Assembly: GCA_032718475.1 (NCBI GenBank)
Contig: JAUCBJ010006878.1
Span: 1-48,843 of the forward strand
Reading direction: 5' to 3'
Length of the DNA stretch: 48,843 nucleotides
From: Nemertoderma westbladi
Taxonomy: Eukaryota > Animalia > Xenacoelomorpha
Shown: positions 2,992 through 43,515 of the stretch, in pieces
Numbering within the stretch: position 1 is the stretch's first letter
Layout: every line of letters starts with the position of its first letter
Notes under the pieces: model-generated
The model's input: only the letters and a program-made list of their open reading frames with translations
Databases searched by the model: none
Told to the model about the DNA's origin: nothing
Made by a program: the position numbers and the translations under genes

Positions 2992-3540
2992 TGTTAGCTT
3001 ATCCAATTCCGCTAACATGAACCCACAAAGTAAGCCGTTGAGCAATATTGGGAGCACGAGGTTGATTACCAATCAACCTCGTGTCAGCCCAGTAAACGGG
3101 GACAATAGGCCCCAAAGGAGACACACACAATAAGGGTCAGGGGCCAAACCCCTAACAGAGAGAGAACAACAGGGGCAACGGGAAACACACCAGGGAAGGT
3201 GAAAGGGCGAGAAGTGGGATATTAGCCAATGGGGGGACAGCATCGACTAGGTACAGTAATATGGCCAACTGTGCAGTACATATATTACCTGTTGGTGCTT
3301 CCCTATTCAGTTTAGTTTACTCAGTCAGATCAGTAGGGTGGAACGGGGACTTCTGTCACCGTCCGCTACCGCCATCATACTTATCTACCGGTAACCGTGT
3401 CATACTATACTGTGCTATATCAGACTATTATACCTTTATACATATTACCGAACATCAGAACTCTTTTACCTTTCACACACGGCGGGGACGCGTGGATAGA
3501 AAACCCAACGGATAAACCGGGATCCGTAGATCCCGTCACA
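2992..3540 (+). repeat. 5' LTR of element A
   Basis: TGTTAGC...GTCACA; appears identical to 36465-37013 by eye; contains a 13-bp hairpin at 3055-3083 and CCAAT at ~3226. Confidence 0.95.
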
Positions 3541-3549
3541 GTGACAGAA
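3541..3549 (+). promoter_or_regulatory. PBS-position sequence GTGACAGAA, complementary to LTR 3351-3359
   Basis: Directly follows the LTR; no TGG; reverse complement TTCTGTCAC is at 3351-3359. Confidence 0.65.
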
Positions 3550-3670
3550 TCAGATACGCCCAGCTGCCCTGACAGTGATAGAATCCTAGCAGCTGCCCTA
3601 ACAGTCTGACAGTGATAGAACTAGATCCAACCAACTGACAGACTGTGGCGGCCAGCCGCCAAAGACGAAG

Positions 3671-6600
3671 ATGAGTCGAGAGAAAGGAACGACACCGCCG
3701 CGGACCCCGGACGACGATCTAACGATCCGCGAGGCCACGGCGAGACGATACGAACCCACGACGCCGGTCGATGCTACGCCGACCACGTCGACGCACGTTG
3801 ACGCCACGTCGATAACGAGCGACCCGGCGAACCAAGATGTGGGGGGTCGTCTACAGAGAGAGGACGAGTCGGGAGTCGAAAGGGAGAAAGACGAGTCGAC
3901 AAGGAGCGAGGGTCGACGTACCGATGTCGCCGGCCAGCCACAGGCCGAGGACGACGAACGGTCCACCGGAACGGCGACGGTGGGGCCGTCGGTACGACGT
4001 CGGACCCGGAGAGATGGAGGAGAGGTCGGCGACGAGGACGTCGGGGTTTCTGATCGACTTCGACGGGCCTACAACGCGACCCGGGAACTACTAAAGGAGG
4101 CCAAGGAGGGGGCGAGGATAGACGAGGTCAAGATGAAAAAAGGACTAGGTGAGTCGAACAGATACTTTGATCACCTAGTGTGTTCTGGGCAGAGAGAACT
4201 AGCCGAGGAGAGAGCGAGGGGGGTTGCCAACGAACTGATTGAACTATGGGAATGTGGGGGTATGGAACCTAGCGTAGTGTACGTAGGGCCATACTTAGTT
4301 GATGCCTGGGGAGTAAAATTAGTGGGTTGGAGGAGACCTGAGGAGGGCGAATCCGAGGTTAAACCCGAGGATTCGGTCTCGTCGGTCGGAGGAAGTTCCG
4401 GGAGGCGGGGGAAAGTTAATAGGACGGAGGGGCGGCGGGAGTCCGTCGCAACCGATAAGTCTGCTACATCCTCCGCAAAAGAAAGAAGGGTGCGGGAGAT
4501 AAATCTGACGTATAAATTAGAAATGGCGGCGAATAAGCAGAATGGGTTAGAGAGACAATTGAGGGGTAAAACCGCATACTTAGAGAAGTTAGGAGAGTTG
4601 GCGAGGGAGTATAGAAAGAGAGTCGAGGAGTGTATAGAGCGGGAGATGAGAGTAGGGGACGAGCCGGCGATGTGGCTTGAGATAATTGCGAGAGTTGAGT
4701 TGTTCGAGCAGCGTAACCGAGAGAGAGAGATAGAGGCAGAGCGTGAGCGGGATGATTTGCGTGCCCAGCTAAGGGGGCTTGCGCAATATCAAGCCAAACT
4801 AGACCAGCGCCGACTAGAACTGGCGCGGTTGGAAATATCAGAGAGTGAGACCCCACTTACATACACCGGGCGAGAGAACCAGAACTGGTGTAGCCGTACG
4901 GGCGGGGGGGGGTAGTAATAGTACGTTAGAAATAGTTAACATTAATAGTACCGTAGTAAATAACCCTAATCCCTTTATTACAGGAAATAATATTTTACCT
5001 GGTAGTAGTAATTTAAATTTAAATTCAAATAATAATATTAATTCAAATATTCAGAATAATTCTAATTTAAATAATTTAAATCCCGTTTCAAATTCTAATA
5101 ATTTAATTGATTTAACAAACAATATTGGGAATGGTGCTATTAATATGAGCGTGTCGGACGTACATAACCCGGCAGACGGGGGCCTGGTAGGCCACGTGCT
5201 TAGTAGGCAGGAGGTGGCAGGGTTGAGCCAACCCGACGGCGGCCTGGTAGGCCACGTAGTTGGTAGACAGGAGGTAGCGGGGTTGAGCCAACCCGAGGTG
5301 GGCCTGGTGGGCCACGCAGTGGTAGAGAGAGAGGCGGGGGGGAATAGACCCAGCCGTAGTAAAGACAGTGCGTCGACTAGAGAGGGGTGTAGAGACGAAG
5401 TAAGAGATAGTGAAGTTAGATGTGGCGAGTGGGGGGGGGGCTACCGGCGCCCCGGAAGTTAGATGTGGGGAGTGGGGGGGGGGGCTACTGGCGCCCCACC
5501 ACATAAGACTAGTGGCGAGAGAGGGGGGGCAGAGAATGCCCCACAAGGGGGGTGTAGAGGTGTAGTAGGAGGTAGTGAAGTTAGAAGTAGTGGGTGGGGG
5601 GGGGGGGGCTACAGGAGCCCCACCACGAAAGATTAGTGGCGAGAGAAGGGGGGTAGAGAATGTCCGACAAGAGGGACGCAGAAGTGTAGTAAGAGATAGT
5701 GAAGTTAGAAGTGGCGGGTGGGGGGGGCTACGGGCACCCCACCGCGAGAGATTAGTAGAGAGAGAGGGGGGGCAGAGAGTGTCCCACAGGCATCGGCGGA
5801 TAATGCGCGGGCCGAGCTAGGTAAACCGCAACACCCGGCGATGGAGAATAATAAGGGGATTGCGAGTATCCCCAGCGGCGTGCGATCGAGCAGAGAGAGG
5901 TAGGTTGATGTCGCGAGAGGGCAGGCGAAGCGTCGAGCCCGATCAGAAGAGGGAAGAAGAACAGTGGAGTTTAACCGGGAGGTCGACGAGAGATCTCACG
6001 AGCGGGAATACTGCACGAAAAGGGGAAGAAGAGAAGATAGTAGAAGAAGTGTCGCCACGAACGATAGCAGTGTGAGGACAGATAGCGGACCGTCGATAGT
6101 AGAGATGGAGTTAGGGAGTCAGTGGGGTCGAACTTCGGGAGATTGCCGTCACCCCGGAGAAACGCACCGCACGCCAAGAGAGGGGTACAGGAGGTACCAA
6201 TACAAAGTCGAGAACAGGAGAGGGGATCGAAGAGAAGCTTCCCGACGGGATATAGCTGCCGATCGAGAGTGCAGTAGTCGCGGGGAGATTCGAGATTCGC
6301 GAAGAATAAACTTCGGTTCGGAAGGGCACATGCAGACTGCAGGACATACTGTAGGCCTTACTGCACATACTATTATAGGCCATGCTGGGAGAGATAGAGT
6401 AGGCGATGGGGTAGCGCGAACGACGGGATTAAACCCGGAAGTCGCGGAGTACATACCGGTAGGTAGGCGAGAGGTAGGTAGGCCTATATCGGTACAGCAG
6501 CATGACTATAATACACAGGGACATAACATATATCCAGGGGAGGGGGGAGTTATTGGAGATAGACGTATGGGCCCCAATGTATTAACATCAACCCCAGTAC

Positions 6601-6777
6601 CAAACATACCGGCCGGGGGGGGACAGGGTGACATTCCCCCATCACAATATCGACAATATACCCCGATAGGAGCAAGAACATCTAACTCCCTGGACGAGAG
6701 CAGGTCGTGCGGACAGTCACCACCACACGCGGCCATACAGGGGACTGCTAGTCCACAGTTAGCTGGTAGCAGGGCCA
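3671..6777 (+). pseudogene. N-terminal part of element A gag-like polyprotein, broken at G homopolymers and by the LINE insertion
   Basis: Consecutive ORFs 3671-4915, 4845-5462, 5718-5903, 5964-; BEL-gag-like PEDSVSSVG motif, coiled coil, LNPEVAEYIP; several frame changes coincide with G runs. Confidence 0.65.
5170..5790 (+). repeat. Coding tandem repeats: 60-bp unit x3, then ~120-bp G-rich units
   Basis: (D/E)xGLVGHxx repeated three times; GAAGTTAGA..GGGGGGGCTAC repeated four times. Confidence 0.75.
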
Positions 6778-7149
6778 CATTCATTCATTTCATTTCATTC
6801 CCGGATTTGGCCCCGGTGGCTTTAATTGAATTAAAATGTTAAAACCAAATATATAAAACGTCACATGACCGGTACTATAAATATTACAAAACATGACCGG
6901 TATATATAGACGATAAAATATTGCAAAACACATAAAACAGCAGAATATTATACTATACATACTTTGCTCTATCGATAGAATAAAATATTTAGGGTTGCAC
7001 AATATAATATATATTTTGTCCCAAGATCGTTAAAATATTTAGGGTTGCAGAATATAATATATATTATTTTTTGTCCCAAGATCGTGGTCGGAATTCTAAA
7101 CAATCTATTATTGTTTTTCCTAAGTACCACACCAGTGTATGTGTTGCTT

Positions 7150-10100
7150 CTAAACTATTTGCCACCTGGGTTGAAAATATTCAACTAACACGTCATGTTT
7201 TACGTTGAAATTATACTTGGGTTTATTTAAAACTACCTGCATATATAGTGCGTCAAAGTGAATGCTGAAACGTGTGTTAATTAAGTCGTGTTTTCCTTCC
7301 TGTTTTTTCTGATAAATGATCTGTTTAATTTTGTATTGATTAATTGAGAGCGCTTCTAGCGATGGAATTCCAAGTTGAAATGCGTATCTGCTGTAATCTT
7401 GTAGCATTAAATCTTTCGATATTCCCGCTATGTGGTGAGAAAGGAAGTAATAAGAGAGATAGATCCCCTTGGTATTAGAATTGAATGCGCTGTAATTAGA
7501 GCGAAGACTTGCTGACTTTAGAAGAAATTCGAAATTTGGAATGAGGAATGTACTATCTATTGTTTGGTCGGATACATAGTTTTTGACAGATAGTATGCTT
7601 CTCAGTGCTTTATACCAGGTTATTTTAATATCTTCTATAATGTTACTTGGAATGCAAGCACATCCATAAAGTGCTGATGGTAAGCAGACCGTATTCCATA
7701 TTAGTCTAGTAATATCAAATGGAACACTGTCAGCTCCAAACCCATTCTTCTGTAATTGGTGCAGATTTCCCCATATGCGCTTGGTGTAATGGTCTCTTAA
7801 CTTCCAGTTTTCTGCTGGTAGAGGAAGACCCAAGAAAGAAATAAAATTCGATTGAATGATAGCAGTGCCACTCTCCAAGTACACTTGTTCATCTTTACGT
7901 GGAATCATTCCAGATGGGATCTCAAGTTTCGTGTAGCTTGTGACAAACCATGTTTTTCTCAAATTTAATCTCAGGTTGTGCTTTTTGAAATAACTTTCAC
8001 AAGTAGTTAGCAAGAACTGTGCGTCGTTTTTGAGGTTAGCCATAATAATTAAATCATCCGCATATGCCAGCATTGGAAATGATATTTTGTTTAAGTGCAG
8101 TCCTTTCCCGGATTGTTCGAGTTCTTCGACTAGGTCTCGCATGTAAAAATTAAAGAGGAATGCAGAGATGATCCCTCCCTGGCGTACTCCCTGCTTTAAC
8201 ACAATAGATTGTCTGGATATAATGTTATTCAGGGCTATAAATGCTTTTGACTGGTAGTAATAAGATGCTAAAGTTAGAAGGATTGATTTGTCGATGTTGG
8301 TGTTCTCCAATTTGTCGAAGAGGGTCTTGTAAGATACAGTGTCAAAAGCTGATGAAAGGTCTAGGGATATAATATACACGTTTGATCCATGGGAATTGAA
8401 ATGTTTTGTTAATCTGTTTGCTAGGATGTATGGCAACTCTGTGCTTTGTCCACTTCTGTAGCCCATTTGAAGATCACTAAGTCTGATCTTTTTTATTTCA
8501 TTCACTATTAGGATCTCCCATATTTTAGTTAATATTGGCATCACCGAGATAGCACGGTAATTCTCATTGGTATGTATATCTCTATTTCCTGGTTTGAGGT
8601 GGGGAAGAATGAGAGTTAAACATAAAGTTGTAGGCATGTGGTGTGACTTGTTTATGGAGTTATATAGGACTGCAAGAAAATTATATAATTCTTCTGAGTC
8701 ACCATATATCAGATGTTCTGAGGTAAGACTATGCGCGTCGGCTGCCTTATTTCTGTGCAAACTTTTAACTGCCTCCTTGATTTGGCCTGGCGTGATATTA
8801 ATTTTTGTGTCGTTTGCTGCAGATTCATGAGTGGTATCACTTGCAGTCCATTCATCTTCAGTATTGTTCCCATTGAAAAATGATTTATAATGCATAAATA
8901 AATCATCAGCATTTGATACAGGAACATCTTTCTTTTGTTCTTTCTTAATGCTCCGCCAGAATTTAGTTTTATTATATTTACTGGAAGATAATAATTCAGT
9001 GATGTGGTGAACATATTCACTGTGTTCTAATTGTGATCTAGCTTGGAGATACTCAAGTTTCTGAACTGCAGACAATTCTGTTGTGTTGTGTAACTTACAA
9101 TATGTATCTGCAGGGTCTTTAAGGGTAGTTCTTCTTCTGCGCTGTTTCATTATGTGCCGTTTAGGTCGAATCAAGGGGATGTATTTGGTGGCACTTTTGT
9201 ATACTGTTGAAATAAGTTGAGAGGTCGCTTTCTCTAAAGTGCTTTCTATGGACTCGTTCTCTGTAAGTCGTTTTTCCAGTGTTTTAATGTTCTCTGTGAC
9301 TTCTTTTTTGTAGTTGTTAACTTGTTGCTCTGTGGCTCTGTTGAATAAAAACCTTACTTTTTTCCTCCTTTTCCAGAGTTCTTCATGGTTTTGTTCGCCT
9401 CTATTTCCTTTTCTGGTTATAGGTACAGAAAACGCACAGCAAACAGGAAGATGATGTGATTTGTTTAAGGTACTTCTGTTTATAACCCTGTAGGAATCAA
9501 CAAAGCAGGTTAGACCAGCGGATGACACAATATGATCAATTCTTGATGATCTTATGACGTTCCCTCTTTTATCGTGGAATTGGTATGTTGATAAACTTTG
9601 ATTCTCATGCTGGGTGTCTATGAGATCAAGATCGCACTCGCTAAGTATAGTACTTGAGAATATGTCTCGGAATGTATCTGTTTTCTTTTGTGGGTGTCGA
9701 GTTTGCTTGATTAGAGATGGATTACAATTTATGTCGCCGATTATCAGGATGTCTGATGAATTGTTGTAATCTTTAATGATTGATGCTAAGGTGGCTATGG
9801 AGGCAAGATATTTCTCTCTGTCGTATATATTTCCACCATTTGATGGCAGATATACAGCTAGAACAGTGATTTCTTTTTGATATAGTTTCTTTATAGAGAT
9901 TCCAAGAATTCTATCAGATCCCGTGTCTATCTGTGAGCAGAAGCTACTGACATCTTTATCAATAAGAAGTGCTACCCCACCCTCTCCCCTAACCCGTTTT
10001 TTTGCTTCTAACATTTCGCTTGCTACTGTGTAATAGCAGGTGTATCCATTTGGTATATTTTCATTGCTGAAGTAAAACCGTGCTTCACGTGGACTAAGCC

Positions 10101-10305
10101 AGTGCTCTTGAAGAGCTAGAATAGTTGGATTTGTTTCAGTTATCAGAGAATGTATATATTCTAGGTTGTTTTTATATCCTGTACAGTTGTAAGTTAAGAC
10201 ATTAAGGTTTTTTGATGTTCTCGTCTCAGTTTCTAAGTATATTTCTTTTGTACCAGTTATCTTAAAAACAATAGTTCCTGCCTTCGTGTAGTTGTCTCGT
10301 TTCAT
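7150..10305 (-). CDS. LINE ORF2: APE endonuclease + reverse transcriptase (1051 aa)
   Basis: TYNC, LQEHW, VYLPS, GDIN, IDH, SHHLP; YRAIS, LDLSSAFD, GVRQGG, YADDL. Confidence 0.95.
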   Translation of the reverse strand: MKRDNYTKAGTIVFKITGTKEIYLETETRTSKNLNVLTYNCTGYKNNLEYIHSLITETNPTILALQEHWLSPREARFYFSNENIPNGYTCYYTVASEMLEAKKRVRGEGGVALLIDKDVSSFCSQIDTGSDRILGISIKKLYQKEITVLAVYLPSNGGNIYDREKYLASIATLASIIKDYNNSSDILIIGDINCNPSLIKQTRHPQKKTDTFRDIFSSTILSECDLDLIDTQHENQSLSTYQFHDKRGNVIRSSRIDHIVSSAGLTCFVDSYRVINRSTLNKSHHLPVCCAFSVPITRKGNRGEQNHEELWKRRKKVRFLFNRATEQQVNNYKKEVTENIKTLEKRLTENESIESTLEKATSQLISTVYKSATKYIPLIRPKRHIMKQRRRRTTLKDPADTYCKLHNTTELSAVQKLEYLQARSQLEHSEYVHHITELLSSSKYNKTKFWRSIKKEQKKDVPVSNADDLFMHYKSFFNGNNTEDEWTASDTTHESAANDTKINITPGQIKEAVKSLHRNKAADAHSLTSEHLIYGDSEELYNFLAVLYNSINKSHHMPTTLCLTLILPHLKPGNRDIHTNENYRAISVMPILTKIWEILIVNEIKKIRLSDLQMGYRSGQSTELPYILANRLTKHFNSHGSNVYIISLDLSSAFDTVSYKTLFDKLENTNIDKSILLTLASYYYQSKAFIALNNIISRQSIVLKQGVRQGGIISAFLFNFYMRDLVEELEQSGKGLHLNKISFPMLAYADDLIIMANLKNDAQFLLTTCESYFKKHNLRLNLRKTWFVTSYTKLEIPSGMIPRKDEQVYLESGTAIIQSNFISFLGLPLPAENWKLRDHYTKRIWGNLHQLQKNGFGADSVPFDITRLIWNTVCLPSALYGCACIPSNIIEDIKITWYKALRSILSVKNYVSDQTIDSTFLIPNFEFLLKSASLRSNYSAFNSNTKGIYLSYYFLSHHIAGISKDLMLQDYSRYAFQLGIPSLEALSINQYKIKQIIYQKKQEGKHDLINTRFSIHFDALYMQVVLNKPKYNFNVKHDVLVEYFQPRWQIV

Positions 10306-11038
10306 TTGCAGAACTACTGTAGAATATATGATGTGGTCTCCGTGCTGGTAAAGTGCCAGGTGAGCTGTAAGTTGTTGGAGTTGGTAGTAGCGGTGGCCTT
10401 CTTGGGAAGGTTGTCAGTTTGTCTCTTTCCAGCATATGTGAATTCTTCAGCATGGGATTCATGTAATACTGGTGCAGGTAGCTATACCTTGAATTACTTG
10501 TGGTTCCACATGTTGGGATTGTAGAAGTGGTGGAATTGACTCCTAATTGATTAAGATTTAGTCTGTCTTTATTGTTCTGTCTAGTAAAATTGTGCATTTC
10601 CTGTGATTTCTGAGAATTTGTTCTGCTATAAACATGTTCTGTTAATTCCCTGCGCCGTTCACCAAGGACTGGTAAGTTGTGCTTCATTGGATTAATAGTG
10701 TCGGAAGAATTTTGAGCAAATTTGTTTGTATCTTTAACTGAGTGCAATACTTCAATCTGTAAATTCTTCCATGGCCACATATTGTAATAGAGATAGGTTG
10801 CAACTTCCTCCTTTTGTACATCAATGTGAGCAGTACTTTCTGCCTTTTTAGTATCCTTTGCGATTAAGCAATTTGTAGGGTAGGTCCCTGTTTGTTTAAA
10901 GCATATATTTCTCAGTGTCTCTGCTGAGATATTTGGGGGAAGGCCCGAGATGATGATTGTTTCTTTGTCTTGGGAAGACTTCAGGGGTTTGTTGTACTTG
11001 AGCTTTCCTTCTAAGTTATTTGCAATTTTCTCCATCTT
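10262..11038 (-). CDS. C-terminal segment of LINE ORF1 (RRM-like), joins in frame to 28262-33771
   Basis: Removing element B and one ATCTT gives ...QFIEK-MEKIANN...; IIISGLPPNISAETL RRM-like stretch; overlaps the ORF2 start by 44 nt. Confidence 0.85.
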   Translation of the reverse strand, partial: KMEKIANNLEGKLKYNKPLKSSQDKETIIISGLPPNISAETLRNICFKQTGTYPTNCLIAKDTKKAESTAHIDVQKEEVATYLYYNMWPWKNLQIEVLHSVKDTNKFAQNSSDTINPMKHNLPVLGERRRELTEHVYSRTNSQKSQEMHNFTRQNNKDRLNLNQLGVNSTTSTIPTCGTTSNSRYSYLHQYYMNPMLKNSHMLERDKLTTFPRRPPLLPTPTTYSSPGTLPARRPHHIFYSSSANETRQLHEGRNYCF

Positions 11039-12266
11039 TGTTCGCGCTTTTGAAGACCTTTAGCAGTTTAACCTGCCAAAATTTATATGTCTTTTAGTTA
11101 ATTAACACACCTTTAGCATACGACAATATTTTATGCTAATAAACAAAACATTAGCCGAAGCCAGCCCATGCGCGATCATTCACCCGATGGATCTACACCC
11201 GGGAGGCTGAATTCGGATGCTTAGATTTATTATTGCAGTGTAAGGTTGCAGTGTAAGCCTACTGTATTATTCGATTGATCGCTAATATGTAATTTCTGAC
11301 AGATATTATTAACTTTCGGGAAATATTAACAGTTCCTTTAGGACGTGGCGCTCTATCTATTTAAACAGAGCTAGGACTTATACTAAACGCAACGATAAGG
11401 CTTATGATTAAAGTATAAGTCGCATTCTTTAGGAAATGCTTTGTTACCAGTCACATCACACTCACAATCATGCACACTATTCTGCCGACCGTCAGTATAT
11501 TTGATCACACATAAAGAGAACAGCAATTGACTCAGGTAGTGTCTACTAAATAACATTAGATTCAATACACACCACATTGATATAAATCGCAATTGTTATA
11601 TATAGCCCGCCTCTCTAACCTGTAGTGTATCAATAAAATTGGGAATTTTGGGTGATTTATCCGTATTCTCCAAAGAGCAATATTTCCATCAACAAATAGA
11701 TACAATTAATAACTGACGGTAAATAGCAGTACAAACAATATGATTAGTGCAGTTGAATTAAGTGAGGTAACACCGCCGGTAACAGTTATACTTTCTATAA
11801 TCTAAGCAGTTTTACTAGAGTTCTTAGAGCCGGTGTTTCTGGCTTAGACAGCAATAACAACAAAGTATCAAGTAAAAACAGTAAGACTGAACACTCTCCT
11901 TATGATCGGCCGAAAAGCTACACGTCGACAGGAAAAATCGCTCTGATTGGCTCAAGCCAAACAAAGAACCATGCATCCAATGGCTGTTTCCATGTCAGCA
12001 ACCAGCTGTTAGATGTCGTAATATGAATCATCACGGCTAAGCTGTGAAAGGTAGTTGGTGCATTGCAGGTTTTTTGCCTTACCATGTCCGCCAAAACACG
12101 TATATAGCAGAATGACTTTTATGTCCGTTAAAACACGTGTAACGGTACCTTGCGGGCGAGGGGAATATATATACAGTTAGAGAACCTTTTTAGAGTATTC
12201 CAGCGCCTGGGGGGAAACTGGATTGCGAAGCAAAGGGGCCAGTTATATCCCACAGAAGCTTTTACA
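11039..12266 (-). repeat. 3' LTR of element B
   Basis: Matches 27034-28261 with about 2 substitutions seen; AATAAA on the minus strand at ~11226-11231. Confidence 0.95.
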
Positions 12267-12274: not shown

Positions 12275-12911
12275 AGAAAATGGGATTTGAGTCTATGAAA
12301 TATACAAAATCACAGTTTCTCAAATACGAAAATACTCTAAACAGTTAGTCTTTCATGCGCGGACGGCATTTACGCAGTTTTTTAAAGCTAGCCAGAGTCT
12401 TTTTCTCTTTGGGGCGAGCCACTTTACAAGGAGGGCTATAACTCCTGGGTGAAGGGTGCAACATGATTGCATCAGAGGGTATATGATTATGGTCGGTGTA
12501 TCCGCCAGTCGAAGTGCCGAGTTGATTGACATCAACGTCGGGGGAGAGGGGTCTAACGGCTTTGAGAGCTCGTTTCAAGACAGCCGCTCTTACGGGTCCT
12601 TTACGAGTGGTCTGAACGAGGGCCGTGGGTGGACCATAGGCAGTTAAATATAAATAATAAATAAATAATAATTCTTTTATTCATTCTCGATAGTTATAAG
12701 CACCAATCGAGGCAGTTTGTCTCAGGCGACAACTGATAATTGAATAAGCGTTAAAAGACCACATGCATATAATGCATGAGCTGTACAGTAGAGGACATAC
12801 AGTATTGTAACAACTTAATTTAAATTTAGATACACAATTTATTTAGATACCCACAATCCAATCATTGCCCCCCCCCCCCCCCCCCCCACAACAAAAACTT
12901 AAATAAATATT

Positions 12912-15900
12912 TTAGGTGACTTCCTCCCGGTGGTAGCGAGATAGAAAATGGGATTTTAATTTGTTTTTGAATTCTGTCGGTTTGTTATAACATTTTTTGA
13001 TAGGTAAAGGTAACATATTCCACATTTTCGTTAGTTGTACTATCATACTGTTGTGGCCATAGATATTGGTTGTTTTCGGCAGTCTTAGTTGAATAGTGCG
13101 TTTATTTAGATGGATATGTGTATTTGATATAAATGGTAATTCAAGGATTTTGTATGGTTCTAACAGGTGAAATAGGTATTTGTAATAATATATTAGCCCA
13201 AAATATTCCCGATATGCTGTTAGAATTGGAATTTTAGCTTTTGATCTTAGTTCAGTGCCGGTACAGTCCCTGGTTTTTTTGTTAAATATTGAGCGAAGTG
13301 CGAAGTTTTGCATCTTTTCTAGCTTATATAGTAGTTCTTTGTATCCGTATTTATTGTGTAGGGAAACCAGAAGTTGGCTACAGTAGTGATGGTGCGGTAG
13401 AACTATTGTTTTATATATGTTAATTTTGGTTTGTATCGGTAATTGTCCTTTAATTTTCCGTAAACATGATATACTTAGTGACATTTTTCGTACTACAGAG
13501 TCTATTTGTTCTTTCCAGGTCAGTTTGTTGTCTATATGTACTCCTAGGTATTTTACACTTTGTGATTGGTTAATATGAATGTCATGGGATAACGTAAGTT
13601 TAGAATCGTCAATATTGCTGCGGTCAGTTTTTGGGGATAATAGTATGAATTCAGTTTTTTCAGGATTTAATTTTAGTTTCTTCTTACCGAAAATGTCAGA
13701 TATTTTATTAATTGTTAGTGTTAGTTTGTCAGTTGCTTCAGTGGGATCGTGAGACGAAATATAGATTGCTGTGTCGTCTGCATATTGGACAGTATTGGCA
13801 GAGTCAGATATTAGTTCTGGTATTTCGTTTGTATATAGTGAGAATAAAAGCGGTCCAATAAGTGTTCCTTGTGGTACCCCCCGTTGCTCCTTCAGAAAAG
13901 ACGATAATTGTGACCCAACCCTAACCCTCTGGAATCTGTCAGTTAAATAACTTTTAATTAATTTGCAAGCTGTTGTGTGGAACCCCAAATTTGATAAGAC
14001 ATTTATGAGCTGTGAATGATCGAGAGAATTAAAGGCCTTACTAAGGTCGAGAAACGCTACTGCCACATATTTTTGTTTATCTAATTGTTCACGCCATCGT
14101 TCGGTCGCATACGTAACAGCGTCAATTGTAGAAAATTTCTTACGAAATCCGAACTGAAAAGCAGTGCGTAATTTGTGTTTGTAAAGATAGCATTCAATTT
14201 GGCTTACAAGTACCTTTTCTATTATTTTTGAAATTGGATGTGTGATGCTTAAAGGGCGATAGTTTTGTGGGTCATCATCGTCTCCCTTTTTAAATACGGG
14301 CGTTATGGTTGAGAGCTTTAATGTGTCTGGGAAAATGGAACGTGTAATACAGTCATTTATAATATGAGTTAGAGGTGATAAGATCATAGGGCGAATCTGT
14401 TTCAATATTCTTATAGGGATTTTAGAGTGGCCGCATGGTTTGTTTTCGTTCAAATTTTGTATAATTTTATCTAGGTCAAAAATATTAATAGAAGAAAAAC
14501 AAAAAGCGTTGTTGTTTGGAGAAATTTGAATTGTGTTTGGAATCGGTAGTGACTTACTTGTAATATTAAGATCTGAAAATTTACCAATATCAATATATAT
14601 TTCATTTAAAATGTTCGATATTTCTTTTTTATCAAATATACTTTTCCCACCATAGCTTATTTCCGAAACAGATTTACTATTTTTATTTTTATTTAAAACC
14701 TCATTTATCACCTTCCAACGTCCCTGAGTTGTGTTTTGAGTTAAGAATTTATTTTTTACGTATGCATTTTTTAAATTTTTGTTTAAATTATTGTACAAAT
14801 TTCGCGTTTTCTTGAAGGAATTAAAATCAGCAATATCTTTAGAAGAGCGCCAAATGTTTAATTTTTCATACTTTAATTTTCTTAAATTTCCGAGTTCTGT
14901 TGTGTGCCATTTCTGTGTGGCTCCTAAGTATTTTTGTGGCATTTTTAGTTTTCGTTTTAGAGGTGCATGTCTGTCAATAATTTTTTCGATTTCAGATTCA
15001 AAATAAGACAGCTTTTTATTTACATCAGATTCGTAATAAAGTGGGATCCAATTAATATTAGCAATTTCGTGACGAAATATATTTTGATTGAAATTTGAAA
15101 AGTCCCGGTATTCAATCCACTCATTTGTTTCATTGGCTGATTTTGGGATATTATGTGCAATATTAGTTAAGGTATATTCATGGTCAGAATAATGACAAAA
15201 AAATACTAAGCTTTCAATTACAGTAGAAGAAGGAATATTAGTTATAACTAGATCAATTAATGTGTTAGTACATTTTGTATATCTCGTTGGTTTGGTAGTA
15301 TTTAGTATACGTAGGTCGTGCGCAGTTGTCATACCTCGCAGTTTTGTTGTCTGGCTACTATTAGTGTTTAATAAATTGATGTTAAAGTCCCCTTGAATGA
15401 GAAAGTTACAGTTTGGTTCAAGTAGCATGGCATTGTCAATTTCTTGTTCAATATCATCAATAAAGTGTGGGTTGGCACGGGGTGGATTATATACTGTACA
15501 TACCAATATATTATCGATCTGAACCCATAAACTCTCTAGTTTATCATTGTCCTTAATGTCCTTGTTACGTATTTTCGCTTTATAGCCATCCGGAATGTAA
15601 ATTAGAACACCACCACCCCTCTTACGTTTACGGTCTAGACGAAAGTGTGTGAAACCTTTCATTTTTATGGACTCACAAGAGGTATTTCGCTTTAGCCAAG
15701 TTTCAGTTACTGACACAATAACATTTCGCGAACCCAACAAGACTTCTTTCAGCTCGTCGAAATTTTTGTTTAGACTTCTAGCATTTATATGAATAAATTT
15801 CAGTTTGTCTGTGTCTTTTGCAATATAGTCCTTAATGTCAGTAAATGAATTTTTTACTTTAGCATTTGTGGATGTAAAGTAGTAATGTTGTGAATTGTTA

Positions 15901-16994
15901 CTTGTGGTTGGATGTTTGCGACATTTACGTCCTGGACCTGGGTTAGGGTGTATGTTGCCAGAAATTTTTAGTAACAAGTTGATAGTAACGGCGAGAATGA
16001 TAGTTATATCAAGTACGAATGTGTGGTATATTTGTATGCAGTACTTAAGTGTCAAATATGTTAATATAACTAATTGTGTGATGCTTAATTTCCTATTGGC
16101 AATTAATTTCTTCGAATAGTTTAAGTGAGTAATATCTTTGTTATTTATAGTGTACATATATTGACAATTATGTGGTAGAATGACAGTTAAATATAAAAGT
16201 GAAACAAATAAGTGACAATGTGACTGTTTATTATTTAGTGTTGCTGCTATTTCTTTAGAATGCCGAAAAAAACAGTTAGTTGTGAGCTGTACAATTTGAT
16301 AAAACAAAAATAAGAGAGAATAGTGGTGGGTGAGCCACCACGGAGAGGAGGTCACACGAAAATGGAAGACCGAAACTACAAGGAAGATGCAACCCAATAA
16401 ATTTATGATATAACTCTTACGTAGATATGAATGAAATTTCCATTTGTTATTTTTTGAAAAGGGATTGGAATGTGAATATCTATGCACATGAGAAATATAT
16501 CGACCAACAGTAATAATAGAGGTAAATGTTGGATATAATAGGGTAAGTGCATAAAACACGGCGCATACTGTAAGTAGCATACAGTGATATATAATGAAAA
16601 ATTGTATGGATATAAGTTTTGCAATGATTTTGTACTTTGACAGTGCCAATATAGACAGTAAGCTAAAAGGGATAACCCAAATTAGAGGATTACATAGCAC
16701 TAAATCGGTTAAGGTTAAGAGTTTGACAGTGCAATAAAATGTGTATATCTTACTCCAACCAAACACCAATAATTCCAGTAAAATATCAATTGCACAGGCT
16801 AGACCTGAGTATTCATATTCATTTAGTGCTGAAAAATTTACCGCCGTAGTTGGGAGATCATTGCAAATATATACATAAGACAACTTACAATTTTTTAAAT
16901 ATTCATTGGTTGATGTGCAAGGTACAATTAAACATAGTAATATGAAAATAAACACAAATATAATATATTTATTTAAAATACAATCAATAGACAT
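12912..16994 (-). CDS. LINE ORF2: hydrophobic leader + 2A-like motif + APE + RT (1360 aa)
   Basis: LLLKISGNIHPNPGP; HINARSL, VTETW, YNPP, GDFN, SDH; NYRPLS, QFGFR, LDLSKAF, GVPQG, YADDT, YLG. Confidence 0.95.
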   Translation of the reverse strand: MSIDCILNKYIIFVFIFILLCLIVPCTSTNEYLKNCKLSYVYICNDLPTTAVNFSALNEYEYSGLACAIDILLELLVFGWSKIYTFYCTVKLLTLTDLVLCNPLIWVIPFSLLSILALSKYKIIAKLISIQFFIIYHCMLLTVCAVFYALTLLYPTFTSIITVGRYISHVHRYSHSNPFSKNNKWKFHSYLRKSYIINLLGCIFLVVSVFHFRVTSSPWWLTHHYSLLFLFYQIVQLTTNCFFRHSKEIAATLNNKQSHCHLFVSLLYLTVILPHNCQYMYTINNKDITHLNYSKKLIANRKLSITQLVILTYLTLKYCIQIYHTFVLDITIILAVTINLLLKISGNIHPNPGPGRKCRKHPTTSNNSQHYYFTSTNAKVKNSFTDIKDYIAKDTDKLKFIHINARSLNKNFDELKEVLLGSRNVIVSVTETWLKRNTSCESIKMKGFTHFRLDRKRKRGGGVLIYIPDGYKAKIRNKDIKDNDKLESLWVQIDNILVCTVYNPPRANPHFIDDIEQEIDNAMLLEPNCNFLIQGDFNINLLNTNSSQTTKLRGMTTAHDLRILNTTKPTRYTKCTNTLIDLVITNIPSSTVIESLVFFCHYSDHEYTLTNIAHNIPKSANETNEWIEYRDFSNFNQNIFRHEIANINWIPLYYESDVNKKLSYFESEIEKIIDRHAPLKRKLKMPQKYLGATQKWHTTELGNLRKLKYEKLNIWRSSKDIADFNSFKKTRNLYNNLNKNLKNAYVKNKFLTQNTTQGRWKVINEVLNKNKNSKSVSEISYGGKSIFDKKEISNILNEIYIDIGKFSDLNITSKSLPIPNTIQISPNNNAFCFSSINIFDLDKIIQNLNENKPCGHSKIPIRILKQIRPMILSPLTHIINDCITRSIFPDTLKLSTITPVFKKGDDDDPQNYRPLSITHPISKIIEKVLVSQIECYLYKHKLRTAFQFGFRKKFSTIDAVTYATERWREQLDKQKYVAVAFLDLSKAFNSLDHSQLINVLSNLGFHTTACKLIKSYLTDRFQRVRVGSQLSSFLKEQRGVPQGTLIGPLLFSLYTNEIPELISDSANTVQYADDTAIYISSHDPTEATDKLTLTINKISDIFGKKKLKLNPEKTEFILLSPKTDRSNIDDSKLTLSHDIHINQSQSVKYLGVHIDNKLTWKEQIDSVVRKMSLSISCLRKIKGQLPIQTKINIYKTIVLPHHHYCSQLLVSLHNKYGYKELLYKLEKMQNFALRSIFNKKTRDCTGTELRSKAKIPILTAYREYFGLIYYYKYLFHLLEPYKILELPFISNTHIHLNKRTIQLRLPKTTNIYGHNSMIVQLTKMWNMLPLPIKKCYNKPTEFKNKLKSHFLSRYHREEVT

Positions 16995-17093
16995 ATTTAT
17001 TATTATTTAACCTTTAAAATCATTAAAATTATATTCTGTATTTTTATTGAAGTAAATGTAGAATATAAATGTTAAAAAATATAGAGAATCACC

Positions 17094-19013
17094 TTAGTGC
17101 GATTTGGACTGCAGTGCATGTGACACCATACGTCCTATTATACCTGCAAGTTCCGTGGCGATATTATCTGGATTTTGTTGCGTTGGTCGGGGTGTGTTTC
17201 CATTGGATAATGGTGGCGGTAGCTGACTTGTCCGGGTTAGCGGTAGCCTACTCGGGTGGGTGTATGGATGATACTGAGATCGAGGGTTGTTAGAACCGTG
17301 AGATTGGAATGTTGGGCGATGTCCAGAAGGTCCGTGGTTGATAGAAGCCTGTCGCATTCGGCCACCAGCTGATGGGCCATTTACAAAGGATGATGGTCTC
17401 GACATCCAGCTGTCAGCAAGACGCCTGTTTGCTGACGCGCTGTCAGCCAAGGGCCCCGATCGCTGGCTACCACGTACAACGTCGGAGAACTTCCTCGGGT
17501 CGGGATTTTGTAGAGATGTTTTAAGTAACAGGGTTAATATTTGTTGACCCTGTCGAGATAAATGAACCCCATCCTTAGCGAACGCTTGTTTTAGGATAGT
17601 CTTATCAACCGTGAAGGAACTCCATGTGGAGATTGTAATTATATCGCATTCCGAACAGATTTCACGCAGAATGGTGTTCCTCTGCATAATGGAGGCCAAC
17701 TGGGCCGGATTTGTTACAGGAGGTATATCACATATATACATGTTCGTGGGAGAAAACACCGAACGACAGATCTTAATAGTTTCATATACATTTTCCCGGA
17801 AAGTTGCTAATGGAACCTTTAAATCATTGGTGCCAATTCCTAGCACGATATTTTTTAGCACTTCTCTGCTATATCTAGAAATTAAATTTGGTGCATCGGT
17901 GAAAGAAAGACCAGGGTACGAGTGTATTTGCGTTGTACGATCAATGTTTCGTGGGTCTACATAGTTAAATATAGATGAACCGATAATCAAAGTAGATGTG
18001 AAATTATTTCGACGCCTTGGTATGAATCCGACATTATATTCATTCGAAATCAGGCAGTCCTCGTTTGTATCGGAAACTTTCGAACCCAGCAGTGTAGGAT
18101 GATCGTTTGTATCGTTAGTATCGGAAACTTTCGAACCCAGTAGTGTAGGACGTTCAGTAGGCTTACCTGTAATCGGTATGTCATAATTTTCCGCTAGGTT
18201 TACCAAAACTACATCGACAGAATTATCGCCCACAACTTTGCTCTGGGTTGGAAGTCGTTGAGAAACGTTTGAGTCGTTCGTGGTGTAATTAATTACGTCT
18301 TGGGGATCGGATTCCTTGGCTGCGAATCTCGTTTCGTTGTCACTGCTATCGACTGATATCTGTACCGGTACCGGTATGTCTATATCAGATTGTTCTATAT
18401 TTACGTGGCTATAACCAGGATGGTCCTTCATTATACAGACTGTATTATTAGCAGCTAATATCGGATCAAGGTACTGGTCATCTATTTGTTGTTTACATTG
18501 TAGTATTAATTCTCTATCTTTTTCACGTTCCACTTTTAGCTGTTTGACTTGGTGTTCAAGATCTTTTAGTCTCTCTAAAATGGAACTGAGAGAAATTTTA
18601 TCATGGGTCATTGAGTTATCGCTGATAGGCCTACTGTTACTATTGTTGCTACCGGTAGCAGATTCCGGGTGGGTAATAATACTGTTATAACCATCCTCTG
18701 TATCCATGTCAACGCCAACACCAATATGGCAACGTGTAGTATGGATAACTGGATCTTCAGTTAAGTCTGACAAAGACCTAGTGTAATCATATAACGTAGA
18801 ATTATGTGTATCGGTCAGAAACGAACCTACATCAAGTGTGTCTACATTGGCTGCATCAGGCTGTAGGCCTAAAGGTCGTTCTAATTCTATGTTATTGTCC
18901 TCGATCCTCCTTAGTAATACTGTTCGACCGCCCGTGGTTGACAGGTTGTGTTGTATTAACAATTCTTTAAGCTCCGTTATACTCAGCTTCCGGATATCTC
19001 CACCGATATTCAT
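17094..19013 (-). CDS. LINE ORF1: SAP-like domain, coiled coil, SGNH/GDSL esterase (639 aa)
   Basis: LSITELKELLIQHNLSTTGGRTVLLRRI; LIIGSSI, SYPG, GIGTND, DGVHL. Confidence 0.85.
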   Translation of the reverse strand: MNIGGDIRKLSITELKELLIQHNLSTTGGRTVLLRRIEDNNIELERPLGLQPDAANVDTLDVGSFLTDTHNSTLYDYTRSLSDLTEDPVIHTTRCHIGVGVDMDTEDGYNSIITHPESATGSNNSNSRPISDNSMTHDKISLSSILERLKDLEHQVKQLKVEREKDRELILQCKQQIDDQYLDPILAANNTVCIMKDHPGYSHVNIEQSDIDIPVPVQISVDSSDNETRFAAKESDPQDVINYTTNDSNVSQRLPTQSKVVGDNSVDVVLVNLAENYDIPITGKPTERPTLLGSKVSDTNDTNDHPTLLGSKVSDTNEDCLISNEYNVGFIPRRRNNFTSTLIIGSSIFNYVDPRNIDRTTQIHSYPGLSFTDAPNLISRYSREVLKNIVLGIGTNDLKVPLATFRENVYETIKICRSVFSPTNMYICDIPPVTNPAQLASIMQRNTILREICSECDIITISTWSSFTVDKTILKQAFAKDGVHLSRQGQQILTLLLKTSLQNPDPRKFSDVVRGSQRSGPLADSASANRRLADSWMSRPSSFVNGPSAGGRMRQASINHGPSGHRPTFQSHGSNNPRSQYHPYTHPSRLPLTRTSQLPPPLSNGNTPRPTQQNPDNIATELAGIIGRMVSHALQSKSH

Positions 19014-21738: not shown

Positions 21739-24700
21739 TCACGTTCTGGAGTCCCTAGATATTTGTCGGATTAGGGAAGTAGTCGTAGGAAGAGTATCTT
21801 GCCTTCCATAGTTTTCAGACAGTTTTCGGTCTCTTTCCAGTAAACATAAACGACTAGCTGGGCGATTGAGTTGTTGTGTTACTTTCTCCGCTCCCTTGGC
21901 CTGTCTAATCTCAGCCGTGGTAAGATGAGGAGGCCATTCTTCTTCTTCTTTACTTAAGGAGTCGGATCCACCTAACCAGCCTGGAGTATCTATCAGTTCT
22001 TGAGGAGTTGCTCCTCTGGAAGCGATATCGGCTGGATTAATCGTCCCAAGGCAATGTCTCCATTGATCTACATTGGAGTTAATATCGTCATTATCTGAGG
22101 AGTATGGTGTTCCCTCAGTGGGTTCGTCCACTTCACTGCTCTCCACTTCCAAACCATTTATCTGGTATAGTCTTTCTGATGGTAGTCTCTCTTCGAGAGT
22201 TCTGCGGGAAGGACCAGTAAAGTACCAACCTACTCTAGTTCTTACCGCATAGGTTTGTAGTGGCTGCGGTTGAGCAGGTCGTTTTTCCAATGTCTCGAGC
22301 GCCTCGTGCGCGTTTTGGCCGATAAGTATTTGCACTCCAAGATAATCCGTCTGGAATCGAGGTATTTTAAGTTGTTGGATGCTCTTGTCCTCGTTCCAGT
22401 TATAAGGCTCTACTCGGGTATTAGCGAAGTTCTTTATAGCTACCATTTTTACTGACCTTATACTTTGTTCTCCTAATTTATCCTGTGGGGTGGACAACGC
22501 ACCTACATAGTAATCTGCCGTTATGGTAGATTTCCAAACCTGTATGACTCCTGACATATTTAACTTAGTTCGGAATTTGGGTTGTCCAGCAAAGATGTCT
22601 TCGGCTAGTTCTTGATCGATGAATGTTCCTGTACTGCCGGAGTCAAGGAGGGCATTCACTATGTAACTTTTGTTAGGACCCTGAACTCTTACCTGCACTA
22701 CAGGAAATTCTCTGATTCCTACGTTGGAAGTTGAAGGTTTCCAGGATGGTTGTCTGTCAAAGTTAGTTGGGGAGAACTCATTGTCGGTGTCCTTTTCGTA
22801 AGTAAGTGCTCGATACACTGCGGTATTTATTAGGTAACAGGATTCGTTGGCGTCGGAGAATTCGTCTGTATAGAATCCTTCCCACTCAGAACTTTGGTCA
22901 GTGTCGTTCACATCACTGAATTGGACATGTGATTTGGGCTCACTTACCTGACTCGGGCTGTTTCGTTCGAATTCACTTTGTAACAAGATGTGATGTTTCG
23001 CACCGCACTTTGCACACTTTATGTCGGAGTAACAGGTTCGCCGCTGGTGTCCGCGTCTGAGGCAATTATAGCATAACCGCTTGTCCCACACAACTGTACG
23101 TCTGTCTACAAGGGATTTCTTTAGGAATTCCGCACACGCACTCAAACGGTGGGGCCCGTCGCACAGCGCACAGTTTGGTTTAATGTTACTCACTTTACCT
23201 TGGGTGACGTTATGCACTCTAGTTCTTTCTTCGGGCTTTCTTCCGTGTACTCCGTTAGGAAACTGAAGAGGAGTCTTATCAACCTTTTCTCTCCTGTCAT
23301 GGGTTCGAGCCTTAGATTTACTTACGTTCTTTGAGGTCTTGTTAACATAGTAAAATTTCTCGGTGTCTTCCTCGCTGTCTTCTTCTTGAGAAGCTTGGCT
23401 TTCGCCGTCATCAGTATAACACACCGGTGTTACTCTTCTCCTAGAAACGGGTTTCTCACTTACCTTATTTTCCGGTGTTTTCTCTCTGGATTGCTTTAGG
23501 AGTTGTAATTTCACTTCGCCATCCAAGAATGACATGAGATCAGCCATGGTAGGGTCTCGTTGTTGTTGTTCCATAGTATATAACACCTTCTTGTCCCAGC
23601 GTGTACCTACTCCACCCTTGGGCAAAGTAGATGCTAAGGCTCCTACAACCATAGAATTCTGGTATTCATGAGACTTACCTAACCAATCTAGTTGTCTACA
23701 GATCTCCTGAATCTCATCGGAAAACTCTATAATCCCGCTGCTAAGAAACTTTCGGGGGGCCATTAATTTCGCATATAAATACCTAGCTATGTTATTCCTA
23801 TTACCATACCTGATGTTTAGTGTATCCCAAACTTGTCTTAATCCATCTGGATGTCCAATAAATTTTAACGCCATTGACTTGGGAGGTCCTTCCAAGCACT
23901 CGATGAGGAATCTAAGTTTCTCTCCGTTGGATAACACAGAGTTCTGTATGTTATCTTTATAATATTCATTAAAAGGTAACCATTTCATCTCATCTCCATT
24001 GAATTTGACGATCTCTCCCACTTTGACCGCTTGGCGGGCTTCTGTTCTAGCCATCTGACGCGTAAAGCTTTCTTGGGCCATCGTGTTATTTAATATCGAA
24101 TTATCGTTATACAAATTTCTCGGATCATTATCAGGTCTATAGGGAATATCATTAATAACAGGTCTATAATCACCCTTAATAGGGTTTGCTATAGGAGTTT
24201 CAACTTCACTAGCAGTATAGATGCGTGTAGGCTCCACACCTTGCGCATGTAATACTTCAGACCTAACAGGTTGGCACAATGTTACAGGGGGTATTGGTAT
24301 GCCCTTTTGTATATTGACTAATTTGTCGCATTCTAGCGCGATACTTTGCTGCACTTCCTGCAACTCTGCTCTACTTTCCCTCACTGTTCCCTTAAGTTGG
24401 TGGACAGTCTCCTCCATTTCCCTGACCTGCTGAGAGGAGCACAAACAGTGTTCCCTCAGCTGCTCGAGCAGGAGACCCATCTCCCGTCGTCCCTCAGCTA
24501 CCCACTCAACCGCCGAAGCGGGAGTCGCCAACGTAGTAGCGGGCGAGCGAGAGACGACGGGCGATAAATTCTTGATACCTCGCTCGGCGTCCAGGACGGG
24601 TTCGGACTCGGGAACAGTCCTACTGGGCACAGGTAGTCTTCTGGTTTGTTTCTTCAAGTAATCTTGTTTCGCCTGAAGGTTTTCCAGCTCTAGTTGGATA

Positions 24701-24846
24701 GTCGCTTCAGACGTCTTCCGTTCTGCTTCTGCCACTGCCTCTGCCGCTTTTCTGTCTTCTCTCCTTTCAAGACACTGTCCAAGTCGACGACTCATTCTAA
24801 AACCCTCTAAGAGACTATCTGACAATGTTTGTGTTGTGTCAGACAT
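21739..24846 (-). CDS. BEL/Pao gag-protease with RNase H and integrase C-terminal remnants (1035 aa)
   Basis: KFNGD..W..F and EKLRFL (DUF1759-like); knuckles CALCDGPH, CYNCLRRGH, CAKCGAKHH; ALLDSGS; WRHC..NPADIASRG; RPASRLCLLE; no RT. Confidence 0.92.
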   Translation of the reverse strand: MSDTTQTLSDSLLEGFRMSRRLGQCLERREDRKAAEAVAEAERKTSEATIQLELENLQAKQDYLKKQTRRLPVPSRTVPESEPVLDAERGIKNLSPVVSRSPATTLATPASAVEWVAEGRREMGLLLEQLREHCLCSSQQVREMEETVHQLKGTVRESRAELQEVQQSIALECDKLVNIQKGIPIPPVTLCQPVRSEVLHAQGVEPTRIYTASEVETPIANPIKGDYRPVINDIPYRPDNDPRNLYNDNSILNNTMAQESFTRQMARTEARQAVKVGEIVKFNGDEMKWLPFNEYYKDNIQNSVLSNGEKLRFLIECLEGPPKSMALKFIGHPDGLRQVWDTLNIRYGNRNNIARYLYAKLMAPRKFLSSGIIEFSDEIQEICRQLDWLGKSHEYQNSMVVGALASTLPKGGVGTRWDKKVLYTMEQQQRDPTMADLMSFLDGEVKLQLLKQSREKTPENKVSEKPVSRRRVTPVCYTDDGESQASQEEDSEEDTEKFYYVNKTSKNVSKSKARTHDRREKVDKTPLQFPNGVHGRKPEERTRVHNVTQGKVSNIKPNCALCDGPHRLSACAEFLKKSLVDRRTVVWDKRLCYNCLRRGHQRRTCYSDIKCAKCGAKHHILLQSEFERNSPSQVSEPKSHVQFSDVNDTDQSSEWEGFYTDEFSDANESCYLINTAVYRALTYEKDTDNEFSPTNFDRQPSWKPSTSNVGIREFPVVQVRVQGPNKSYIVNALLDSGSTGTFIDQELAEDIFAGQPKFRTKLNMSGVIQVWKSTITADYYVGALSTPQDKLGEQSIRSVKMVAIKNFANTRVEPYNWNEDKSIQQLKIPRFQTDYLGVQILIGQNAHEALETLEKRPAQPQPLQTYAVRTRVGWYFTGPSRRTLEERLPSERLYQINGLEVESSEVDEPTEGTPYSSDNDDINSNVDQWRHCLGTINPADIASRGATPQELIDTPGWLGGSDSLSKEEEEWPPHLTTAEIRQAKGAEKVTQQLNRPASRLCLLERDRKLSENYGRQDTLPTTTSLIRQISRDSRT

Positions 24847-24979
24847 TTCGCTTTATACAGTTGGATGCCTACTGCTATATATACAGTTAAAGCAAGTCTA
24901 GTAATTCAGTATCACTGCTAGCCTAATAATTAATTACCGATACTGCTACTCAATGTAGCGTGATATATATATATAATAT

Positions 24980-26737: not shown

Positions 26738-27022
26738 ACAATCTGAGCAGGGTCACACGCCTTCTGCTCAATATTAGCCTACTAGTAAATAAAACCGACA
26801 GAAATAAGTAAACTATACAAAAGAATGAGGGGTGATCAATCCCTATTCCCCTGGCAGCCTACAATATACAATAGATCACAATCGAAATAATACTAAATGT
26901 ACTTGTACAGCAGTACCGGTACCGGTGATGACAGTTAGGCCTACTGACCTACAGAAGTACCGGTTCAGTTTTACCGGTCACTACGGTATTTTGCAACCTT
27001 ATTGCTCACTGCAATAAGATCG

Positions 27023-33771: not shown

Positions 33772-33919
33772 GCTGTTTATCTCAGTATCTGCAGATCTGC
33801 CTGTCAGTACAGCAGTACAGGAGTTACAGTGTCGGCCGTGTTCCTCTGTGGAATTCCCAGAGTGTGGGTGTATTCATTGTATTCATTGTGTTCACACCGT
33901 GGCAGGGACAGAAAGAAAA

Positions 33920-36455: not shown

Positions 36456-36464
36456 GGGGGGGAG
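36456..36464 (+). promoter_or_regulatory. Polypurine tract of element A
   Basis: GGGGGGGAG abutting the 3' LTR. Confidence 0.8.
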
Positions 36465-37013: not shown

Positions 37014-37029
37014 ATATATGGTATATAGC

Positions 37030-42270: not shown

Positions 42271-42367
42271 AGATTAAATATAAAACATAATTACACAACA
42301 ACAGTAGGCCTATTTGTTTGATTAGATATGCTTTGGTCGAAATTATATTCAACTAATAGAATCAGGT

Positions 42368-43428: not shown

Positions 43429-43515
43429 ATTTTAGATAAGGCATAATAACGCAGTGGTATTTAGGTAGGGAAATCAAAACGCCCATATATTTGAAACCAT
43501 CCATTTTGTATAGTA

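Follow-up and report, generated by a model that had tools for sequence, protein, structure and literature searches.

Likely self-primed reverse transcription in LTR retrotransposons, at least one of them of Bel/Pao type, from Nemertoderma westbladi

In the present work, a stretch of 48,843 nt of animal-type DNA from Nemertoderma westbladi (assembly GCA_032718475.1, contig JAUCBJ010006878.1, forward strand; hereafter the window) was found to be built of nested retroelements, one of which, element A, carries directly behind its 5' long terminal repeat (LTR) a primer-binding site (PBS) that is complementary to an upstream segment of that same LTR. Two further elements of the window, B and C, show the same arrangement with different letters. 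Judged from these sequences, A, together with B and C, likely primes reverse transcription from its own RNA, in the manner of Tf1, instead of from a tRNA. The mechanism as such is known, whereas its Bel/Pao setting would be new, and the sequence support for it is good. In the literature searched, subscription papers and Repbase entries aside, we found no report of self-priming in Bel/Pao elements: the main texts of PMC3118150, PMC554778 and PMC2774666 contain none of the primer terms looked for, and passages of PMC8220671, PMC3601003, PMC6934838 and PMC5445492 mention no self-priming of Bel/Pao.

The elements of the window and their coding content

Given its identical LTR pair, A was copied recently. 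When compared with what defines Belpaoviridae at the level of termini, it has the LTRs, a polypurine tract (PPT) and a 5-bp target site duplication (TSD; ATATA at 2987-2991 and 37014-37018), the latter being weak as it lies within an AT run. The interior of A spans 33 kb, most of it foreign. Only ~7 kb of this belong to A itself, and they comprise gag-like frames that are broken where G runs occur, a region of zinc knuckles and a long tract of non-coding repeats. Purine-rich tandem arrays with units of 37-62 nt occupy 34690-36030 in its 3' non-coding region. Neither Pfam nor profile nor atlas searches found a capsid domain in A, and the top score of the atlas search with its first ORF (0.83) was uninformative. 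The knuckle region aligned to a profile of 25 Bel/Pao polyproteins with an hhalign probability of 83.7% (E 8.1e-6, 54 columns), but an unbiased search with this region returned ten candidates, none of them at E <= 1; a Bel/Pao origin of A is thus likely and not sure. Taken together, A is a gag-only LTR retrotransposon that inserted recently and is likely of Bel/Pao origin, the latter being an assignment that rests on one 54-column motif. Element B is clearly a Bel/Pao element by its domain content: its Gag matches PF03564 at E 1e-13 and its polyprotein matches are those of Bel/Pao. No reverse transcriptase (RT), RNase H or integrase was found in the ORFs of A and of B, and those of A also lack a protease; by coding content, both are non-autonomous derivatives. 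The ORF of C runs out of the window, and its part within the window did not match the Bel/Pao profile, so that C was assigned to no family.

The order of nesting can be read from the coordinates (Table 1): A is interrupted by a LINE whose first ORF harbours B, and B in turn harbours another LINE (12912-19013). ORF1 of the LINE nested in A (28123-33873 plus 10262-11059, minus strand) is very long, is split by B and has tandem peptide repeats of 81-333-nt units and a Ulp1/C48 protease domain (PF02902, 23.3 bits versus a cut-off of 20.7), which to our knowledge is unusual for a LINE ORF1. The LINE inside B, likewise on the minus strand, combines SAP and GDSL-esterase domains in ORF1 with an intact endonuclease-RT ORF. 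Besides, an open frame of 868 aa at 2-2608 has an RT-like core without a Pfam match and presumably resembles a Penelope-type element; A inserted ~380 nt behind it. An inverted repeat at 38664-38910 consists of two 121-nt arms that are 98% complementary and 5 nt apart, and a 52-nt tandem array (42334-43011) lies just ahead of element C.

Table 1. Positions in the window of the features discussed in the text
Feature	Position	Strand	Remarks
Element A 5' LTR (TG...CA), 549 nt	2992-3540	+	100% identical to 36465-37013
Promoter-like motifs of A	3226-3326	+	CCAAT 3226, TATA-like 3281-3287, Inr-like 3307-3312 and 3321-3326; motif scans
Predicted self-primer segment of A, TTCTGTCAC	3351-3359	+	3' end at 3359, ends in AC; 9-nt Watson-Crick complement of PBS
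Rival, fourth PBS-like site within A LTR	3492-3501	+	captures primer segment in folds starting at 3309-3340
U5 hairpin of A, 7-bp stem, 4-nt loop	3518-3535	+	ends 5 nt before PBS
PBS of A, GTGACAGAA, no TGG	3541-3549	+	directly behind LTR end ...ACA, no spacer
Three degenerate tandem units with extra PBS-like sites	3538-3646 (3538-3571, 3572-3608, 3609-3646)	+	pairwise alignments
A gag-like region, 5' part, several frames broken at G runs	3602-6776	+	no Pfam match
LINE nested in A, ends approximate	6777-33870	-	B in turn interrupts it, splitting its ORF1; RT and endonuclease ORF at 7150-10413
Bel/Pao-type zinc-knuckle region of A	33981-34289	+	hhalign to Bel/Pao profile
Polypurine tract of A	36456-36464	+	just before 3' LTR
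Element A 3' LTR	36465-37013	+	end equivalent to priming at site 1 (3541)
B gag-protease ORF	21739-24852	-	DUF1759, zinc knuckles, aspartyl protease, short pol remnant; no RT/integrase
Segment of the B leader complementary (10 + 11 bp) to LTR 27245-27225	26992-27017	-	this LTR stretch overlaps AATAAA at 27226
Element B 5' LTR, 1228 nt	27034-28261	-	3' LTR 11039-12266, 2 differences, TSD ATCTT
Predicted self-primer segment of B, 11 nt	27774-27784	-	PBS = 27033-27023
Element C 5' LTR, 2155 nt	43299-45453	+	second LTR outside window; end predicted from pairing
Predicted self-primer segment of C, 12 nt	44404-44415	+	PBS = 45454-45465

Pairing of primer-binding sites with the elements' own LTRs

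A self-complementary PBS in A had been proposed in a sequence-only reading of this DNA, and it is indeed present. TTCTGTCAC occupies LTR positions 360-368 and occurs a second time at 36824, inside the 3' LTR. The shuffled controls that the same reading had called for agreed with it: when the dinucleotides of the 549-nt LTR were shuffled, the 9-mer match at offset 0 arose in only 25 of 20,000 trials, and at offsets 0-3 in 54 of 20,000, while one of 143 pseudo-PBS controls from the interior of A reached at least 9 nt. Across the window, 76 of 5,924 CA sites (1.3%) have a match of at least 9 nt within 1.5 kb. Since a 9-nt match is thus not rare genome-wide, the weight of the finding comes from the position of the LTR end, which was fixed in advance. 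Among the variants listed for the very high-copy A family, none lies inside 3351-3359 or 3541-3549; positions that did vary in the contigs include 3550, 3551 and 3556.

The 11-nt match of B was reached in 15 of 20,000 shuffles at offset 0 and in 46 of 20,000 at offsets 0-3, and in none of 250 pseudo-PBS controls. For C, a scan of the region gave three candidates, the longest being the 12-nt complement, which implied an LTR end at 45453; none of 170 pseudo-PBS controls reached 12 nt. This end, predicted from pairing alone, was afterwards confirmed by contigs that were compared only after the prediction had been made: depth drops ~5-fold past that bin in three runs (X1-X3), and one contig of a fourth run (X4) departs into unrelated DNA exactly at 45454. 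The complement is contiguous and at offset 0 in all three elements, and in a cross matrix the PBSs of A, B and C reached 9, 11 and 12, respectively, against the LTR of the same element, compared with no more than 7 against the 10 others. Splice-extended primers were not found in A, B or C (best 4-6 nt). TGG after the LTR is absent from all three, and with it the 18-nt PBS of the tRNA-Arg or tRNA-Gly type. Of note, the LTRs of B (27882-27857, minus strand) and C (43905-43930) share a U-rich motif of 26 nt (88%, E 1.8e-4) upstream of the primer segment.

That the LTRs of A and B lack evident similarity, as stated earlier, was borne out by blastn (best E 0.29). The consensus described for the two, CTGTYAC followed by CG for the primer and GTRACAG for the PBS, is common to A and B, which differ by three double-sided changes (PBS positions 3, 8 and 9). 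Family C departs from it, however, so that the consensus does not extend beyond A and B and shrinks to ...AC for the primer and GT... for the PBS.

Outside the window, a scan of metagenome contigs yielded 79 Bel/Pao loci, of which 21 with less than 300 nt upstream were skipped and 58 were compared. Eight of the 58 were chosen by eye because their LTR end was fixed by both copies diverging after CA, and TGG was absent from the first 6 nt behind the LTR in all eight. In six of them (L009, L010, L031, L040, L046 and L059), a PBS complement of 11-15 nt runs across a predicted splice junction of the LTR, a length reached by 0-1 of 250 controls, and the predicted junctions have textbook GTRAG donors and pyrimidine-rich YAG acceptors. 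The matches of L021 and L063 are only 7-8 nt long (15 and 6 of 250 controls, respectively). In L009, L031 and L059, the 13 nt between a TAG and the donor resemble a micro-exon or, alternatively, a first exon of very small size. These outside loci are not independent of each other: in four of them the PBS is nearly the same and cross-pairing occurs, and the long LTR of C contains a chance 10-nt spliced match to the PBS type common to these four. Over all 11 segments, i.e. those of A, B, C and the eight loci, the 3' end is AC and the PBS starts with GT 0-3 nt after the LTR; the constant AC end suggests a shared cut or priming preference. Family C, the eight outside loci and the finding that A, B and C each pair best with their own LTR strengthen the earlier proposal that self-priming is functional.

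In a quick tree of 54 gag-protease rows (quick search only; L059 mis-cut, L063 without a row), B forms a long branch outside the clade of the outside loci, with its place unsure. A viral_contigs scan with a Bel/Pao alignment gave 220 pattern matches, none of which was confirmed. Another locus, L067, contains three identical 1289-nt copies (1-1289, 6139-7427 and 12277-13565) at a spacing of 6138 nt, corresponding to either a tandem Bel/Pao element or an assembly artefact.

Transcript start, duplicated sites and other explanations

The sequence-only reading had predicted that the RNA of A starts at 3349-3351. As an established start this is countered by the CCAAT, TATA-like and Inr-like motifs, whose positions would put it at 3309 or 3323, ~30-40 nt ahead of 3351; folding favours 3349-3351. 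The stretch 3291-3315 also reads as a splice acceptor. When A was folded from 3349-3351, the primer/PBS duplex formed with P 0.8-0.98, whereas in equilibrium folds starting at 3309-3340 it formed with P 0.08-0.35 and the site at 3492-3501 took the segment. G3355, for instance, pairs with 3497 (P 0.90) when the RNA starts at 3309 or 3323 and with 3545 (P 0.81) when it starts at 3349. The duplex of B, which would close over a 750-nt loop, had P 0.0 in all four folds, and that of C reached P ~0.5 with an RNA that begins at the segment, the other value being 0.1; in C, TATAAA and an Inr lie ~540 nt ahead of the primer segment.

The U5 hairpin of A recalls a U5 stem-loop that Tf1 reportedly needs, and in variant copies of the A family (loose ends at 3525, inspected by eye) the differences fall in the loop. 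According to the accessible part of PMC10085805, the Tf1 "pretzel" consists of three duplexes, including a leader duplex. A leader duplex of this kind was at shuffle level in A (46/150), in C (16/150) and in seven of seven outside loci (L021 left out). B has a leader duplex, as stable as which were 3 of 150 shuffled leaders, but no clear U5 duplex. Its leader can alternatively form a hairpin of its own, and the pairing of leader and LTR is possibly a switch that hides the 5' polyadenylation signal.

The extra PBS-like sites downstream of A's PBS had been taken as part of the covariation argument. Copies of GTGATAGAA are found at 3575-3583 and 3612-3620, each preceded by ACA, and the C>T by which they differ keeps the pairing as G-U (-10.0 versus -11.9 kcal/mol at site 1), so this part of the claim stands. 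They do not, however, amount to independent covariation. The tandem units (34-38 nt) align over their full length, with the last U5 bases included, and not just over the PBS; copies 2 and 3 have one C>T in common, which makes it one event instead of two; and unit 3 is skipped in family contigs of three runs (joints 3582->3645 and 3584->3652). The triplication is therefore a tandem duplication that varies among copies and comprises the U5/PBS junction; perhaps caused by slippage at the PBS, it adds little functional evidence. Site 2 takes 0.11 of the fold ensemble. Where the LTR ends is determined by the site of priming, and as the 3' LTR stops at the equivalent of 3540, this copy of A was primed at site 1. 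Sites 2 and 3 could engage in G-U pairing, yet they are dispensable and went unused for this copy. No PBS-like tandem repeats were seen by eye in B and C.

Several of these observations bear on explanations other than self-priming. The pairing of LTR and PBS might be real but structural, acting in packaging, dimerisation, translation or a 5' polyadenylation switch, with another RNA serving as primer. We regard this as unlikely, though the most probable of the alternatives. It would accommodate the alternative folds of A (3492-3501 versus 3541-3549), the B leader that covers the polyadenylation signal of the LTR and the absence of the B primer duplex from equilibrium folds. A switch does not, however, require what priming requires, namely that the complement meets the first base after the LTR, as it does in A, B and C, or falls 0-3 nt after it, as in the eight loci; the constancy of the AC end argues in the same direction. 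It is very unlikely that the primer is derived from the LTR in a different way, i.e. as the RNA's own 3' end, with a polyadenylation site at 3359, or as a short LTR transcript provided in trans. In A, the 250 nt ahead of the segment end contain none of 11 polyadenylation hexamer variants, and the nearest hexamer in C is more than 570 nt upstream. B does have AGTAAA 32 nt before the segment end, yet its canonical AATAAA lies 550 nt downstream. LTR transcripts should abound in a family of such high copy number as that of A, and a 5' fragment might be supplied in trans.

Still less probable is an alternative raised in the sequence-only reading, in which a tRNA-Asp cleaved where its anticodon loop ends provides its 5' half as primer. 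It starts from CTGTCAC, which we take to be the anticodon loop of tRNA-Asp, and from the layout of the tRNA-Asp 5' half as we assume it; in this copy of A, agreement with the layout is found over the first seven bases of the PBS and over the block 3553-3557. The five bases between the two blocks are unpaired, however, and other copies carry a different base at 3556, namely in 13,619 of 13,619, 9,223 of 9,283, 3,663 of 3,684 and 41 of 41 units of depth in four runs. The GATAC block is thereby broken in nearly all other family copies and the second block is private to this one. B, C and the eight outside loci have other PBS letters, which follow their own LTR. Half-tRNA priming does exist in Ty1/copia, as described in the accessible parts of PMC6317226 and PMC1181622, but the Hemiviruses treated in the latter prime from nucleotide 40. 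No tRNA gene was found in the window or in any of 115 loci, and the corresponding 17-mer occurs 36 times in prokaryote genomes, never in a tRNA gene, which says little about the animal host. As for chance, a coincidental 9-nt match in an A that merely shares a decayed or unrelated PBS is the least probable explanation of all. The rate of such matches at CA sites of the window and the broken frames of a non-autonomous element would be compatible with it, but with the position fixed beforehand the probability of a match is only ~0.001-0.003, the pairing is repeated in B and C, and the identical LTRs indicate that A was copied recently.

A proposed route for self-priming and its relation to known systems

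For self-priming, which we favour, the following course is conceivable. Transcription would start in the 5' LTR at 3351 or some tens of bases upstream, and the segment 3351-3359 would anneal to 3541-3549 beside the U5 hairpin (3518-3535). The RNA would then be cut after AC at 3359, by analogy with Tf1 through the RNase H of an RT, which an autonomous relative would have to supply in trans as A encodes none, and the new 3'-OH would be extended over U5 and R from 3540. Unlike in Tf1, a longer 5' fragment would probably be involved, with its paired 3' end serving as primer, and for other Bel/Pao lineages splicing is predicted to complete the primer. The nine pairs of A, worth ~-12 kcal/mol, are fewer than the 11 of Tf1 and lie below the 10-bp cut-off given in the accessible part of PMC6317226.

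A wider proposal, for and against which we see matters evenly balanced, is that self-priming constitutes the normal mode in large parts of Bel/Pao and arose apart from Tf1. The primer would be a capped 5' piece of RNA cut after the conserved AC, contiguous in A, B and C and spliced from an LTR intron elsewhere, and in A, with its rival U5 site, whether the primer forms would depend on the start of transcription. If the elements indeed self-prime, one of the three large families of LTR retrotransposons would use in many lineages a mechanism demonstrated only for Tf1, many Bel/Pao elements without a recognisable PBS would be explained, and Bel/Pao would be freed from the supply of host tRNAs and from control by tRNA fragments. 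Annotators would gain a rule for locating LTR ends, one that predicted the end of C correctly. Besides, the retention of the pairing by non-autonomous families would mark it as a requirement in cis.

Among known systems, the Belpaoviridae are described in their ICTV profile with a PBS of 18 nt that matches tRNA-Arg or tRNA-Gly at the 3' end, and with a tRNA-primed, poorly understood replication (PMC8742986). The elements described here resemble them in their TG..CA LTRs, their PPT, the animal host and the Bel/Pao gag knuckles (weak in A; clear in B, along with DUF1759 and the protease), and differ in that the tRNA PBS is missing from A, B, C and all eight outside loci and that A and B lack RT and integrase. 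The half-tRNA-primed Hemiviruses (copia, Ty5, Osser and 1731, to which Bianca can be added; accessible parts of PMC1181622 and PMC6317226) likewise have a PBS without TGG. These, however, are Ty1/copia elements in which the partner of the PBS is the 5' half of a tRNA, up to nucleotide 40, whereas the PBS letters of our elements go with the LTR of the element concerned. According to the accessible part of PMC6317226, self-priming is known for the Tf1/sushi group and the Tcn1 clade and has been proposed for plant copia elements of the TAR lineage (Houba, Osr-1). For the TAR lineage and Tcn1, it was predicted from complementarity between LTR and PBS, that is, from evidence of the same kind as ours, although in plant and fungal elements of other families and with at least 10 bases demanded.

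The closest parallel is offered by the Tf1/sushi chromoviruses of Ty3/gypsy, i.e. Tf1, Tf2 and Tj1, whose reverse transcription is self-primed (accessible parts of PMC7175516, PMC10085805, PMC4600332 and PMC5341516). Several features set our elements apart from this group: the gag is of Bel/Pao type, and neither a chromodomain integrase nor a polyprotein of the Ty3/gypsy chromovirus kind is present; the pairing extends over 9-12 nt instead of 11; the segment probably does not comprise the first bases of the RNA; A has duplicated PBS-like units; and in relatives the primer appears to be completed through splicing. What A, B and C have in common with Tf1/sushi is the lack of a tRNA PBS and the presence, right behind the CA of the LTR, of a PBS complementary to an upstream segment of that LTR, to which A adds a U5 stem-loop beside the PBS.
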